In this document: positions 1,474 through 62,200 of the stretch, one piece after another
Position numbering within the stretch: the stretch's first letter is position 1
Layout of the letters: every line of letters begins with the position of its first letter
DNA from: Escherichia coli
GTDB lineage: Bacteria; Pseudomonadota; Gammaproteobacteria; Enterobacterales; Enterobacteriaceae
Reading direction: 5' to 3' (one strand)
DNA length: 64,000 nucleotides
Assembly (NCBI RefSeq): GCF_044647545.1
Contig: NZ_CP172818.1
Made by a program: the position numbers and the translations under genes
Notes under the pieces: generated by a model
The model's input: only the letters and a program-made list of their open reading frames with translations
The model's database searches: none
Told to the model about the DNA's origin: nothing

Positions 1474-1571
1474 GCCTGATGCGCTACGCTTATCAGGCCT
1501 ACATCGCTCCTGCAATGTATTGATTTTGCAAGATTTTGTGGGTCGGATAAGGCGTTCACGCCACATCTGGC
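1474..1571. repeat. REP (repetitive extragenic palindromic) elements downstream of opgH
   Basis: Imperfect palindromes of the gcctgatgcg...cttatcaggc and ggataaggcgttcacgcc type, typical REP/BIME units. Confidence 0.7.
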
Positions 1572-10667: not shown

Positions 10668-10772
10668 TAATCTCTATGCTCCGGCTGAAGGGATGTTTTT
10701 GCCGGACACAAAGGATAAGCGGAAACGTTTTCCTTTGCACGAAAAATAAAGGGCGCGAATGCGCCCTCGTGA

Positions 10773-11466: not shown

Positions 11467-12114
11467 TTAAATCGCCATTGATGATAACAAATTGATTTGT
11501 GTCTGTTTCGCCATATTATCGCGGTAATCAGCAACGCGGCTTGGCCAGTTAATTCCGGCTACCAGCGTCAGATTACGCAGGAGCGGAAATAGCTGAATAT
11601 CATCTTCCGAAAGTTCGCCATTCACGGCGTTCGGTTTGACGATCAGTTTGTCCAGCGCACGTAAATCATCGCTGATATTCTTAATCAGACCGTCAGAGTG
11701 GGCCAGCAGGTCGGCAAAATTACCCGCGCTGGCCTCTTTCTTGTCGACGAAATATTTGCGCGCGGCAGGAGTAGAAAACTCATCAAATGCCGATTTGGCA
11801 AAACGCGGCAACAGCAGTTTGTTGGCGTAGCCATTGACCTTGCGCAGCCATTCTTCAATGGCAGGGGAACGTTTGCCGGTCAGTAACGGTTTGCCGTCGA
11901 GTTTATCGACATAGTGAACGATGTCCATGCTTTCTGGCATATAGCGGCTGTCATCTTTTTGCAGAATGGGAACCTGTTTTTGACCGACCATCCGGGTGGG
12001 TGTTTCTGCGTCGTCGTTGAGTAGAACATGTAATTCGACGGGGATATTTTTCAGGCCGAAAATCATGCGGGCTTTGAGGCAGTAAGGGCAGTGATCGTAA
12101 ATGAATAGCTTCAC
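11467..12114 (-). CDS. grxB: Glutaredoxin 2 (GrxB)
   Basis: 215-aa ORF with CPYC active site at residues 9-12. Confidence 0.95.
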   Translation of the reverse strand: MKLFIYDHCPYCLKARMIFGLKNIPVELHVLLNDDAETPTRMVGQKQVPILQKDDSRYMPESMDIVHYVDKLDGKPLLTGKRSPAIEEWLRKVNGYANKLLLPRFAKSAFDEFSTPAARKYFVDKKEASAGNFADLLAHSDGLIKNISDDLRALDKLIVKPNAVNGELSEDDIQLFPLLRNLTLVAGINWPSRVADYRDNMAKQTQINLLSSMAI

Positions 12115-45490: not shown

Positions 45491-46288
45491 ATGTTTTTAG
45501 TCGACTCACACTGCCATCTCGATGGTCTGGATTATGAATCTTTGCATAAGGACGTGGATGACGTTCTGGCGAAAGCCGCCGCACGCGATGTGAAATTTTG
45601 TCTGGCAGTCGCCACAACATTACCTGGTTATTTACACATGCGGGATCTGGTAGGCGAACGCGACAACGTCGTATTTTCTTGTGGCGTGCATCCACTCAAC
45701 CAGAATGATCCCTACGATGTAGAAGATTTACGTCGTCTGGCGGCAGAAGAGGGCGTTGTAGCGCTGGGTGAAACCGGGCTGGATTATTATTACACGCCTG
45801 AAACTAAAGTACGTCAGCAAGAGTCCTTCATCCATCATATCCAGATTGGTCGTGAACTGAACAAGCCGGTTATCGTCCACACCCGTGACGCCCGCGCCGA
45901 TACGCTGGCAATTCTGCGCGAAGAAAAAGTGACGGATTGCGGTGGCGTACTACACTGTTTTACAGAGGACAGAGAAACGGCGGGTAAATTACTGGATCTC
46001 GGATTTTACATCTCCTTTTCCGGCATTGTGACCTTCCGTAATGCGGAGCAACTGCGCGATGCTGCGCGTTATGTCCCCCTGGATCGGTTACTGGTGGAAA
46101 CTGACTCACCTTACCTTGCGCCGGTACCGCATCGAGGAAAAGAGAATCAACCTGCGATGGTTCGTGACGTTGCAGAATACATGGCTGTGTTGAAAGGTGT
46201 TGCCGTTGAAGAACTGGCGCAGGTAACCACCGATAACTTCGCCCGTCTGTTTCACATCGACGCTTCCCGCCTTCAATCCATCCGTTGA
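45491..46288 (+). CDS. ycfH: TatD-family metal-dependent deoxyribonuclease YcfH
   Basis: Track ORF trimmed to ATG 45491 ([11 protein letters not shown]); 265 aa. Confidence 0.94.
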
Positions 46289-46462
46289 ATGAGTTTTTTT
46301 AAAGCTCGTAATTAATGGCTAAAACGAGTAAAGTTCACCGCCGAAAATTGGGCGGTGAATAACCACGTTTGAAATATTGTGACATATGTTTTGTCAAAAT
46401 GTGCAACTTCTCCAATGATCTGAAGTTGAAACGTGATAGCCGTCAAACAAATCGGCACTGAA

Positions 46463-46488
46463 TTATTTTACTCTGTGTAATAAATAAA
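46463..46488 (+). promoter_or_regulatory. Mlc operator in the ptsG promoter
   Basis: Palindromic TTATTTTACTCTGTGTAATAAATAAA about 95 nt upstream of ptsG start; matches the Mlc box as I recall it. Confidence 0.7.
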
Positions 46489-46582
46489 GGGCGCTTAGAT
46501 GCCCTGTACACGGCGAGGCTCTCCCCCCTTGCCACGCGTGAGAACGTAAAAAAAGCACCCATACTCAGGAGCACTCTCAATT

Positions 46583-48016
46583 ATGTTTAAGAATGCATTT
46601 GCTAACCTGCAAAAGGTCGGTAAATCGCTGATGCTGCCGGTATCCGTACTGCCTATCGCAGGTATTCTGCTGGGCGTCGGTTCCGCGAATTTCAGCTGGC
46701 TGCCCGCCGTTGTATCGCATGTTATGGCAGAAGCAGGCGGTTCCGTCTTTGCAAACATGCCACTGATTTTTGCGATCGGTGTCGCCCTCGGCTTTACCAA
46801 TAACGATGGCGTATCCGCGCTGGCCGCAGTTGTTGCCTATGGCATCATGGTTAAAACCATGGCCGTGGTTGCGCCACTGGTACTGCATTTACCTGCTGAA
46901 GAAATCGCCTCTAAACACCTGGCGGATACTGGCGTACTCGGAGGGATTATCTCCGGTGCGATTGCAGCGTATATGTTTAACCGTTTCTACCGTATTAAGC
47001 TGCCTGAGTATCTTGGCTTCTTTGCCGGTAAACGCTTTGTGCCGATCATTTCTGGCCTGGCTGCCATCTTTACTGGCGTTGTGCTGTCCTTCATTTGGCC
47101 GCCGATTGGTTCTGCAATCCAGACCTTCTCTCAGTGGGCTGCTTACCAGAACCCGGTAGTTGCGTTTGGCATTTACGGTTTCATCGAACGTTGCCTGGTA
47201 CCGTTTGGTCTGCACCACATCTGGAACGTACCTTTCCAGATGCAAATTGGTGAATACACTAACGCAGCAGGTCAGGTTTTCCACGGCGACATTCCGCGTT
47301 ATATGGCGGGTGACCCGACTGCGGGTAAACTGTCTGGTGGCTTCCTGTTCAAAATGTACGGTCTGCCAGCTGCCGCAATTGCTATCTGGCACTCTGCTAA
47401 ACCAGAAAACCGCGCGAAAGTGGGCGGTATTATGATCTCCGCGGCGCTGACCTCGTTCCTGACCGGTATCACCGAGCCGATCGAGTTCTCCTTCATGTTC
47501 GTTGCGCCGATCCTGTACATCATCCACGCGATTCTGGCAGGCCTGGCATTCCCAATCTGTATTCTTTTGGGGATGCGTGACGGTACGTCGTTCTCGCACG
47601 GTCTGATCGACTTCATCGTTCTGTCTGGTAACAGCAGCAAACTGTGGCTGTTCCCGATCGTCGGTATCGGTTATGCGATTGTTTACTACACCATCTTCCG
47701 CGTGCTGATTAAAGCACTGGATCTGAAAACGCCGGGTCGTGAAGATGCGACTGAAGATGCAAAAGCGACAGGTACCAGCGAAATGGCACCGGCTCTGGTT
47801 GCTGCATTTGGTGGTAAAGAAAACATTACTAACCTCGACGCATGTATTACCCGTCTGCGCGTCAGCGTTGCTGATGTGTCTAAAGTGGATCAGGCTGGCC
47901 TGAAGAAACTGGGCGCAGCGGGCGTAGTGGTTGCTGGTTCTGGTGTTCAGGCGATTTTCGGTACTAAATCCGATAACCTGAAAACCGAGATGGATGAGTA
48001 CATCCGTAACCACTAA
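46583..48016 (+). CDS. ptsG: PTS glucose-specific EIICB component PtsG
   Basis: 477 aa; EIIB phosphorylation motif [10 protein letters not shown] near C-terminus. Confidence 0.97.
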
Positions 48017-57563: not shown

Positions 57564-57803
57564 GATGCCGTTGTACCTGGTGACTGTGAATTAAAGGTTA
57601 TTATAAAAATAATCACCTCCGTTCACCAGTCCAGAAACCATAAAAATAATCGCTTTCTATTTAACTGAAATTTAAAGATTTTTAAATTAATTAATGATTG
57701 TTATAAAAAATATCTTGTATGTGATCCAGATCACATCTATCATTTAGTTATCGATCGTTAAGTAATTGCTTGCGACGTCATTCATCTGCATAAGGCCACT
57801 ATT

Positions 57804-59248: not shown

Positions 59249-62200
59249 TTAAGCGATCGCGTTCTCTTCCAGTTCACGCATAAACTGGCGTACCCATTCG
59301 ATACGCGTTTTCCGCTCACTCAAATCCTGAATAAATTTCAGGCGCGTCGGACCATCAAGACGGTAATGCTGCGGCTGTTTTTGCAGCAAACCAATCAACC
59401 AGGCCGGATTAACGTGATTCTTCTCGGCAAATTCGATCACGCCGCCTTTCTCATTACCTTCCAGCTTCCTGATCCCCAGTTTCTGCGCTTGCTGGCGCAG
59501 ACGGGCAATATCCAGCAGGGTACGCGCCGGATCCGGCAGCAGGCCGAAGCGATCGATAAGCTCGACTTTGATCTCTTCCAGTTCGTTTTCCGTTTTGGCG
59601 CTGGCAATACGTTTGTAGAACGACAGACGCGTGTTCACGTCAGGGATGAAATCATCTGGCAATAGCGACGGCATCCGCAGCTCGACTTCTGTTTGCTGGC
59701 TGGTGAGATCTTCCAGCGACGGCTCGCGTCCGGCTTTCAGTGCATCGACGGCGTTTTCCAGCAACTCCATATACAGCGAGAAACCGATGGTTTCCATTGA
59801 GCCGCTTTGTTCTTCGCCAAGCAGTTCACCCGCGCCGCGAATCTCCAGATCGTGCGTTGCCAGCGCAAAACCTGCCCCGAGATCTTCCAGCGAGGCAATC
59901 GCTTCAAGACGTTTTTGTGCATCGGTAGTCATCGCTTTTGGATGCGGTGTCAGCAACCATGCATATGCCTGATGATGCGAACGTCCGACGCGACCGCGCA
60001 ACTGGTGCAACTGTGCCAGACCGAAGTGATCCGCGCGTTCAATGATAATGGTGTTGGCGGTAGGAATGTCGATCCCGGTTTCGATAATGGTGGTACAAAC
60101 CAGCACGTTGAAACGTTGATGATGGAAATCATTCATCACCCGTTCCAGTTCGCGCTCACGCATCTGCCCGTGACCGATGGCAATCCGCGCTTCAGGTACC
60201 AGTTCTGCCAGCCGTTCGGCGGCTTTCTGGATGTTTTCCACATCATTGTAAAGATAATAAACCTGCCCCCCGCGCAAAATTTCACGCAGGATCGCCTCCC
60301 TGACCACCAGGCTGTCATACTCACGGACAAAGGTTTTAACTGCCAGACGACGGGCGGGCGGCGTGGCGATAATCGACAGGTCACGCATTCCGCTCATTGC
60401 CATATTCAGCGTACGTGGGATCGGCGTTGCGGTAAGTGTCAGAATATCCACGTTCGCCCGCATCGCTTTAATGCGCTCTTTATGACGCACCCCGAAGCGG
60501 TGTTCTTCATCGACAATCAGCAGACCTAAATCTTTAAACTTGACGTCATTTTGCAGCAGTTTGTGCGTACCGATCAGAATATCGATTTTCCCTTCCGCCA
60601 CTTCCGCAAGGATTTGCGTCTGCTCTTTGGCGCTGCGGAAACGGGAGATCATTTCGATACGTACCGGCCAGTTGGCGAAACGGTCGCGGAAGTTGTCGTA
60701 ATGCTGCTGCGCGAGAAGGGTGGTAGGCACCAGCACCGCCACCTGTTTGTGGTTATCTACCGCCAGGAAAGCGGCGCGCATCGCCACTTCTGTTTTACCA
60801 AAGCCAACATCGCCGCACACCAGACGATCCATTGCCAGCGGCTGACACATGTCGCTAAGCACCGCATTAATGGCCTGCGCCTGATCCGGCGTGGTTTCAA
60901 ACGGGAAGCTGTCGCAGAACAACTGATACTGCTCACGATCGTGTTTAAACGCGTAGCCCTCTTTGGCGGCGCGTTGCGCGTAGATATCCAGCAATTCTGC
61001 CGCCACATCACGCACTTTTTCCGCCGCTTTCTGCCGCGCGCGTGACCACGCATCGCCGCCAAGTTTATGCAGCGGGGCGTTTTCTTCCGCGCCACCTGCG
61101 TAACGGCTAATCAGATGCAGTGACGACACAGGAACATACAGTTTGGCGTCGTTGGCATAGGTGAGCATCAGGTACTCGCCAGTAATGCCGCCCGCTTCCA
61201 GCGTGGTCATTCCTGCATAACGACCGACACCGTGCTCCAGATGGACCACCGGCTGACCAATATGCAGCTCCGCGAGGTTACGGATCAGTGTATCGGGGTT
61301 GATGGCGCGGCGAGAATCCTGACGACGGCGGGCAACGCGTTCACCGAGCAGATCGCTTTCGCAGATCAGCGCCAGATTACGTACCGTATCGACAAAACCA
61401 TGTTCGGCAGCGCCAATCATCAGATAACGCCCACGGTCGCTGGCTTCATCAAGACGCATAATGCGTTGAGGAGCAATTTTAATTCGCGCGAGCAGTTCAC
61501 CCAGTGCTTCACGGCGACCTTCACTTTCTACCGAGAACACCACCGGACCGTCGAAAGACTCGAGGAACTTACGCAGCGCATCCAGCGGCGCTTTTTGTTG
61601 TGCCTGAACGGCCAGGTCTGGCAGCTTCTGAAAACCTAAATTGGCATTCGCTGCTTTTGTCGGTAAATGTTCAGTTTTTAGCTGCACCCGCGGCCAGTTT
61701 TTCAGCTCTGAGAAGAGATCGTCCACGCGCAGCCAGAGCGATTGTGGCGGTAATAGCGGGCGCATCGGATCGACGCCGCGATTTTCAAAACGCGCCAGCG
61801 TGTCAGTCTGGAAACGTTCGGCACTGTTTTCCAGATCGCCAGTATTCACCAACAGCGTATTGGCAGGGAAATAACTGAACAGTGGCGGCAGCGGTTCGCT
61901 GAAGAATAGCGGCTGCCAGTACTCGATCCCGGCAGGTAATGTGCCTTTACTCACTTGCTGATAAATATGTTCCGGATCGCGCTTCACTTCGAAGGTATCA
62001 CGCCACTGGCTGCGGAACAGTTCAATTGCCGCTTTATCGGTCGGAAATTCGTGCGCGGGCAGCAGATTGATCTCTTCTACTTCCTCCAGCGTGCGCTGGC
62101 TATCGACGTCAAACACTCGCAGGCTGTCGATTTCATCATCAAAGAAATCAAGACGATAAGGCAGCTCACTCCCCATCGGGAAGAGATCCAGCAACGCGCC

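Follow-up and report, generated by a model that had tools for sequence, protein, structure and literature searches.

How far can the regulation described for ptsG in Escherichia coli K-12 be carried over to another strain of the species, given the DNA of its control region? We addressed this question for a 64,000-nucleotide stretch of E. coli DNA (assembly GCF_044647545.1, contig NZ_CP172818.1; hereafter the window), in which a sequence-only reading had assigned an Mlc operator, a CRP-like half-site and an SgrS target at the ribosome-binding site to the interval 46289-46600. All three assignments hold, with four corrections, and the interval is almost certainly a native E. coli ptsG control region that works as published for K-12. 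Our findings on this control region are all already known for E. coli ptsG. They serve as a sanity check only, and Mlc, CRP and SgrS should control the glucose PTS of this strain as they do in K-12.

The window carries ptsG behind a control region that differs from K-12 at one position

A 477-aa open reading frame on the forward strand of the window is the ptsG coding sequence (EIICB-Glc; Table 1), and its product is 100% identical to the PtsG protein of E. coli and E. albertii loci. The open reading frame upstream of ptsG is ycfH, which ends at 46288. Of 5,426 complete E. coli genomes, 5,424 have a single match to the interval 46289-46600, each with ptsG annotated beneath its 3' end, and many complete genomes carry 100% identical copies. 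Against K-12 MG1655 (NC_000913.3, reached from window coordinates by an offset of +1,111,286) the interval is identical at 311 of 312 positions, the sole mismatch being position 46453. Every named ptsG control element (operators, CRP site, transcription start and leader) is unchanged. Elsewhere in the window, a low-complexity homopolymer block at 29230-29795 looks corrupted.

Table 1. Features of the ptsG locus in window coordinates; mean identity compares the window sequence with the Enterobacterales loci aligned by MAFFT
Feature	Position	Strand	Basis	Mean identity
Distal Mlc operator TTTTTTTAAAGCTCGTAATTAAT	46294-46316, centre 46305 (-175 from P1 start)		rule, PWM, conservation	0.75 (79 sequences)
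Putative P2 -35, TCGTAA	46306-46311	+	17 bp upstream of TAAAGT	
Region between distal operator and CRP site	46317-46426			0.44
Conserved GAGTAAAGT; putative P2 -10, TAAAGT, at 46329-46334	46326-46334	+	conserved in most orthologous loci	
GC-rich inverted repeat CACCGCC-N8-GGCGGTG	46336-46357	+	arms conserved, loop variable	
CRP-cAMP site core CGTGA-tagccg-TCAAA = CGTGAtagccgTCAAA	46432-46447 (22-bp site 46429-46450), centre 46439.5			0.88 (22-mer)
CRP-Mlc spacer				0.35
SNP relative to K-12 (C here, T in K-12)	46453		spacer between CRP site and Mlc operator, -27 of P1	
Proximal Mlc operator TTATTTTACTCTGTGTAATAAAT	46463-46485, centre 46474 (-6 from P1 start)		rule, PWM, conservation	0.91
Putative P1 -10 hexamer, TACTCT	46469-46474	+	position 6-8 nt upstream of mapped starts	
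P1 transcription starts	46480 (-103), 46481 (-102), 46482 (101-nt UTR); secondary 46488 (95-nt UTR)	+	PMC2760140, PMC3415461	
5'-proximal stem-loop AGGGCG-cuuaga-UGCCCU, P1 mRNA +9 to +26	46488-46505	+	MFE fold, covariation	
Second leader stem-loop GGCGAGG-cucucccc-CCUUGCC, support weaker	46512-46533	+	MFE fold	
SgrS pairing site on ptsG mRNA (+76 to +95), 5-8-4 pattern	46555-46574	+	duplexfold, literature	0.86
SgrS core AUACUCAG	46561-46568		pairs with SgrS nt 174-181	0.93
ptsG coding sequence	46583-48016	+	ORF, annotation in E. coli genomes, protein identity	

Two candidate Mlc operators lie upstream of ptsG

The published rule for Mlc operators describes a 23-bp quasi-palindrome in which only TT at -6,-5 and AA at +5,+6 are invariant; its arms (±7 to 11) are AT-rich, and A/T at ±11 sets Mlc sites apart from high-affinity NagC sites (PMC4288165, PMC1874608). 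Applied to 46289-46600, this rule returns exactly two sites, 46463-46485 and 46294-46316. Both have TT-N9-AA and a T at each of the ±11 positions, and their arms are A/T at 10 of 10 positions. A pattern made from the ptsG site itself was circular, and we replaced it with a symmetrised PWM built from one site each of the ptsH, mlc, manX and malT promoters and from no ptsG site, the training sites being chosen by the rule itself and not from footprints. In the K-12 ptsH, manX, malT and mlc promoter regions the rule yields strong candidates in each case, in adjacent registers for ptsH and manX and with one further candidate for manX; the "six native sites" of PMC4288165 are in line with these rule-picked candidates. 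With this PWM the proximal ptsG site scores 16.0 bits and ranks fifth in the 64 kb (0.3 expected from dinucleotide shuffles of the window), and the distal site scores 19.5 bits and ranks first (0.025 expected from dinucleotide shuffles). Other high scorers are low-complexity DNA at 29454-29476 (18.4 bits) and one site at 12044.

The sequence-only reading had reported a palindromic Mlc box of 26 nt, TTATTTTACTCTGTGTAATAAATAAA, at 46463-46488. That string is found exactly there, 95 nt upstream of the ptsG ATG, and contains the 23-bp operator, but its last 3 nt lie beyond the operator and the extent of the box is shortened accordingly. A motif scan for Mlc, which the same reading had proposed as a check, gives a positive outcome both with the independent PWM and in conservation. 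The operator occupies -17 to +6 of P1 and spans the putative -10 and the transcription starts at 46480-46482. Judged by its sequence, the assignment of 46463-46485 as an Mlc operator is supported. The identical K-12 ptsG operator is the standard Mlc target in ptsG-lacZ repression assays (PMC4288165). In MG1655 grown on glucose, one ChIP-qPCR study detected no significant enrichment of Mlc or Fis at the ptsG promoter (PMC8846999). Sequestration of Mlc on glucose would account for the missing Mlc signal, but this is still a negative result in vivo.

The distal operator lies in the same span of 46289-46600 in which the proximal site had been correctly reported, and was missed in that account. It lies directly after the ycfH stop codon, 169 bp upstream of the proximal operator (centre to centre). 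A minor promoter, P2, reportedly starts ~141 bp upstream of P1 (Plumbridge 1998). The distal operator probably overlaps the -35 region of this upstream promoter, and the conserved GAGTAAAGT fits a P2 -10, the hexamers given in Table 1 being putative. Just beyond these hexamers is a GC-rich inverted repeat with some double-sided variants among the aligned loci (one pair is CG instead of GC in 12 sequences; GTGCACCGCC...GGCGGTGCAC). This putative element may belong either to the 5' end of P2 transcripts or to the region just downstream of ycfH. Promoters with two Mlc sites have been described with a 98-nt spacing (PMC1874608), which disagrees with the 169 bp at ptsG. A search by the rule within 46289-46600 for a further operator at this distance from the proximal site returned none.

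P1 is a weak promoter with a probable CRP site at the class II position

The known ptsG p1 start is at -103 from the ATG by primer extension (Plumbridge 1998, tabulated in PMC2760140) and a high-throughput start is at -102 (PMC2760140), whilst in a genome-wide set 62 reads support a 5' UTR of 101 nt and 45 reads one of 95 nt (PMC3415461 supplementary TSS table). These starts were converted to window coordinates with the ATG at 46583. The numbering used in the SgrS literature, where A82-G89 is AUACUCAG (PMC3089445), likewise places +1 at 46480. The putative -10 hexamer TACTCT agrees with TATAAT at 3 of 6 positions (T1, A2 and T6), and a generic sigma-70 consensus scan missed P1, the hexamers of which are too weak. 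A -10 of this weakness fits a CRP-dependent promoter. The only match of the sigma-70 scan, TTGTCA-17-AATGAT at 46391-46419, is at chance level (1 vs 0.7) and is not conserved. Two minus-strand "terminator-like" matches are not terminators; they are the leader hairpin and the run of A ahead of the Shine-Dalgarno sequence, read on the opposite strand.

The sequence-only reading had noted a CRP-like half-site at about 46420-46450. Its location was right, with 46432-46447 falling inside this range, but the site is a complete core with two half-sites and not a half-site. The core matches TGTGA-N6-TCACA at 8 of 10 positions, 4 of 5 in each half. A consensus scan of the 64-kb window with up to 2 mismatches gave 15 matches where 26.6 were expected, which is not above chance, and the site is not callable from the consensus alone because 8/10 matches are not enriched over shuffles. 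The assignment is supported by conservation, fixed spacing, class II distance and the literature. The centre of the site at 46439.5 is at -40.5, -41.5 and -42.5 from the starts at 46480, 46481 and 46482, respectively, which is a class II position. In published work, ptsG is a Genomic SELEX target of CRP and its promoter is less active in a crp mutant (PMC3105977). Mutations in the ptsG promoter also arise repeatedly when strains lacking crp are evolved (PMC8846999, PMC11588850).

The ptsG leader is the best SgrS match in the window

Pairing with the leader was computed using K-12 sgrS (227 nt, 77367-77593), restricted to nt 168-187 of the RNA; duplexfold runs with full-length SgrS or with long targets returned unrealistic long-range duplexes and were set aside. 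SgrS nt 168-187 and 46555-46574 form a duplex of -27.1 kcal/mol (duplexfold) that ranks 1 of 25,576 sliding 60-nt windows over both strands of the 64 kb (mean -12.5, sd 2.9), and none of 2000 dinucleotide shuffles of the target matches this energy. The runner-up, on the minus strand at 61039-61060 (-24.9 kcal/mol), lies inside a 1169-aa open reading frame, is G:U-rich and was dismissed as a chance match. Within the duplex lies the Shine-Dalgarno sequence AGGAG (46567-46571), which precedes the ATG at 46583 by 12 nt. The computed duplex coincides with the footprint A82-G89 and the G176/G178 genetics in the literature (PMC3089445), and a 5-8-4 SgrS-ptsG pattern has been published with an energy of -24.2 by another program (PMC2760817).

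The base-pairing prediction that the sequence-only reading had called for therefore finds complementarity, at the best energy in the window and in the 5-8-4 pattern. That reading had located the SgrS target at about 46565-46590. Pairing at the ribosome-binding site stands, but the duplex lies ~10 nt further upstream and overlaps this range only partially. Its remark that sgrS itself is absent from the window is borne out, there being neither an Rfam SgrS match nor an SgrS seed match with up to 3 mismatches in the window. The strain's mlc and crp genes likewise lie elsewhere in its genome. In K-12, sgrS maps ~1.08 Mb away.

The layout of the control region is conserved across Enterobacterales

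Taking one genome per species, we collected 80 ptsG loci, from which one Aeromonas locus and one truncated locus were removed to leave 78. These include Citrobacter, Enterobacter, Serratia, Yersinia, Erwinia, Pectobacterium and Dickeya, and with the window give 79 sequences. Identity to the window sequence was taken from a MAFFT alignment of -300 to +18 (Table 1). The left half of the proximal Mlc operator, TTATTTTAC, is fixed among the variants listed, and the right half of the distal operator, CTCGTAATTAAT, is nearly fixed over the 79 Enterobacterales sequences. Independently of the alignment, two Mlc PWM matches of at least 12 bits occur within 450 nt in 67 of 79 sequences, at a spacing of 166-169 bp in 64. 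In 69 of 79, a CRP core with up to 2 mismatches precedes the centre of the proximal Mlc operator by 34.5 or 33.5 bp, and ACTCAGGAG is present in 73 of 79, at -20 in 60. This conserved layout (an Mlc pair ~168 bp apart, CRP 34.5 bp upstream, the SgrS core at -20) is a template for annotating the region across Enterobacterales and not a discovery.

A common polymorphism and a covarying leader stem-loop

The C at 46453 converts the K-12 hexamer TTGGCA (46452-46457) to TCGGCA. The exact 60-mer around this position is carried by 1,452 of 5,423 E. coli genomes (27%), and the remaining 3,971, K-12 among them, differ by at least one base. Identity in the column of 46453 is ~0.1 across Enterobacterales, within the least conserved stretch. 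Position 46453 is a common natural E. coli polymorphism outside the mapped sites. The K-12 TTGGCA and the TGTAAT at 46476-46481, 18 bp apart, would fit the secondary start at 46488; that the allele at 46453 shifts start-site choice is speculation.

The P1 leader as a whole does not fold with unusual stability (z = -1.4). The structure tested outscores 500 of 500 column shuffles on covariation, as well as all slid controls. In the first helix 88% of cells are paired and double-sided changes occur at 6/6 pairs; the second helix has pairing in 58-70% of cells and double-sided changes at 7/7 pairs (76 distinct sequences in both cases). We found no description of the 5' hairpin at 46488-46505 in the literature searched.

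Discussion

Our analysis supports a control region built as in K-12. Protein binding, sequestration and regulation in vivo are taken from the literature on the identical K-12 sequence, and the mechanism would run as follows. P1 would need cAMP-CRP bound at its class II site (46432-46447) for transcription from 46480-46482, because its putative -10, TACTCT, is weak and a good -35 is lacking. When glucose is absent, the ROK-family repressor Mlc would occupy 46463-46485, covering the -10 and +1 and blocking RNA polymerase, and would act likewise from the distal operator (46294-46316) at the minor promoter P2. During glucose transport, dephosphorylated PtsG would sequester Mlc at the membrane, freeing both promoters. 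Under sugar-phosphate stress, Hfq-dependent SgrS, expressed from its locus outside the window, would pair through nt 168-187 with 46555-46574 over the Shine-Dalgarno sequence, leading to a block of translation and RNase E-dependent decay. SoxS is a further published regulator of ptsG. So are Fis and ArcA (PMC8846999), and Mlc sequestration and CRP antagonism have been reviewed (PMC4393010).

Could the boxes that we read as Mlc operators instead be generic AT-rich promoter or UP-element sequence, or Fis/H-NS-type tracts, with a chance likeness to the degenerate Mlc/NagC consensus? The Mlc logo has just four invariant positions (PMC4288165), low-complexity AT-rich DNA at 29454-29476 reaches 18.4 bits with the same PWM, and Mlc is undetected at ptsG on glucose by ChIP-qPCR (PMC8846999). 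Set against this, both the exact 23-bp register and the non-AT positions in the centre are kept across genera, the pair of sites has a conserved spacing of 166-169 bp, and the K-12 operator that serves repression assays as the standard Mlc target has the identical sequence (PMC4288165). We consider a chance likeness extremely improbable. A similar doubt applies at the ribosome-binding site, since the SgrS duplex takes in part of the Shine-Dalgarno sequence, and conservation of 46555-46574 might then reflect ribosome binding only, the SgrS match being a by-product of an anti-SD-like stretch. That the Salmonella RNA AdiZ uses the same 6-nt seed at the same site suggests that any SD-complementary RNA would pair there (PMC12746102). 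We give this explanation next to no credence, as conservation reaches 10-15 nt upstream of the Shine-Dalgarno sequence (AAGCAC ... ATACTC), where there is no ribosome sequence requirement, no other site in the 64 kb matches SgrS as well as 46555-46574, and compensatory mutations and footprints have been published for the identical K-12 SgrS target (PMC3089445).

The CRP site raises the remaining alternative. Its consensus match is weak, a secondary K-12 start (95-nt UTR) lies where TTGGCA-N18-TGTAAT predicts (PMC3415461), and the SNP at 46453 is inside the TTGGCA hexamer; the CRP-like site might be non-working in this strain, with P1 driven mainly by -35-like and -10-like hexamers (TTGGCA-N18-TGTAAT in K-12) and the T-to-C change at 46453 altering its strength. 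This is very unlikely. The CRP core is far better conserved than the TTGGCA region (0.88 vs 0.35), the major starts are at class II distance from the CRP site, ptsG expression collapses without crp (PMC3105977, PMC8846999, PMC11588850), and the window's exact 60-mer around the SNP is carried by 27% of E. coli genomes.

Within a control region of the K-12 type there could still be a real layer of undescribed ptsG control, in the 5' stem-loop, the ~168-bp operator spacing or the 46453 polymorphism, although we consider this unlikely. If it were so, the stem-loop at 46488-46505 could set mRNA stability or 5'-end accessibility, the ~168 bp (~16 helical turns) between the Mlc operators would lend itself to Mlc oligomers binding cooperatively or looping the DNA, and the 46453 polymorphism would make or break a -35-like hexamer matched to the secondary start.

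Comparison with known systems

The closest known system is the P1/P2 region of E. coli K-12 ptsG (Plumbridge 1998, Kimata 1997/1998), which has the same layout and whose transcription start positions carry over directly; the one difference is the C for T at 46453, in a non-conserved spacer at -27. The 23-bp TT-N9-AA quasi-palindrome with AT-rich arms is shared with the ptsHI P0, manXYZ, malT and mlc promoters and with NagC operators. Compared with those four promoters, the presence of two rule-matching operators ~168 bp apart is here peculiar to ptsG.

The predicted SgrS interaction is the same 5-8-4 duplex as in the known SgrS-ptsG system (Vanderpool & Gottesman 2004; Kawamoto 2006; Rice & Vanderpool 2011; Horler & Vanderpool 2009), with the same core of A82-G89 and SgrS C174-U181 over the Shine-Dalgarno sequence and no differences in the target. 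AdiZ of Salmonella and Citrobacter targets the same SD-proximal site of the ptsG leader (C-19; PMC12746102). By the account of that study's authors, conservation of the AdiZ seed does not extend to Escherichia (PMC12746102), and AdiZ is thus not expected to act on the leader described here.

Spacing of the Mlc-type operators upstream of ptsG

The two Mlc-type operators of the ptsG control region are held at a nearly fixed distance from each other: of the 67 Enterobacterales sequences with two hits, 64 place them 166-169 bp apart. This spacing corresponds to ~16 helical turns, and its constancy suggests that the two operators are placed on the same face of the DNA, and possibly that they take part in cooperative binding or looping. 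In the Citrobacter werkmanii and Citrobacter youngae loci (L007 and L008) both sites lie ~123 bp farther from the ptsG start codon, at -232 and -400 as opposed to -109 and -277, which implies an insertion within the leader. The core of the SgrS pairing target is unmoved in these loci, remaining at -20.

Features located in the window
Feature	Position	Strand	Remarks
ES036 sRNA	1495-1537	-	Rfam
PyrC leader	10668-10717	-	Rfam
Mlc-type PWM match	12044-12066		ATATTTTTCAGGCCGAAAATCAT; 17.1 bits, rank 3 in window
Low-complexity block	29230-29795		~570 bp; between flgL and rne
rne 5' UTR element	33106-33442	-	Rfam
SraB sRNA	35303-35471	+	Rfam
Distal Mlc-type operator	46294-46316
GC-rich inverted repeat	46336-46357		CACCGCC-N8-GGCGGTG; directly 3' of conserved GAGTAAAGT
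Proximal Mlc-type operator	46463-46485
5'-proximal stem-loop	46488-46505		conserved; ptsG P1 leader
Two weaker helices	46512-46533; 46537-46546		ptsG leader, 3' of first stem-loop
CRP palindrome	57720-57735		TGTGATCCAGATCACA, perfect; divergent intergenic region

RNA structure and sequence variation around the ptsG promoters

The leader transcribed from the main ptsG promoter, P1, contains a conserved 5'-proximal stem-loop. Across 76 distinct Enterobacterales sequences its helix is paired in 88% of cells, and each of the six base pairs shows compensatory changes; no description of this structure was found in the literature searched. Farther upstream, the GC-rich inverted repeat has conserved arms and a variable loop, and some double-sided variants are present. 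It may form a 5' hairpin on transcripts from the minor promoter P2, or a structure at the 3' end of ycfH.

The control region differs from that of K-12 only at position 46453 (C here, T in K-12), which changes TTGGCA to TCGGCA at 46452-46457. The K-12 arrangement TTGGCA-N18-TGTAAT (46452-46457 and 46476-46481) is compatible with a secondary ptsG transcription start that gives a 95-nt UTR. The exact 60-mer of the window spanning this position occurs in ~27% of complete E. coli genomes.

Features elsewhere in the window

The four RNA elements matched by Rfam at gathering level are all expected in this segment of the E. coli chromosome. The low-complexity block is composed of extreme low-complexity DNA with homopolymer runs that include A15, T24 and G17. 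Its position is collinear with that of a GNAT toxin/DUF1778 antitoxin gene pair in close relatives, FDAARGOS_497 among them, and identity is 76.6% across 1.3 kb; the block itself, however, is degraded to homopolymers and contains no intact ORF. It has the appearance of an artefact of sequence quality or assembly, not of a biological feature.

The further Mlc-type match conforms to the TT-N9-AA rule and lies inside the 5' end of a 215-aa minus-strand ORF, just upstream of a 103-aa plus-strand ORF; it is probably due to chance. The perfect CRP palindrome is flanked by ORFs of 210 aa (minus strand) and 85 aa (plus strand), which from their position we take to be ycfQ/comR and bhsA/ycfR, respectively. 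The ycfQ<>bhsA intergenic region is included in the list of CRP targets identified by Genomic SELEX (PMC3105977).
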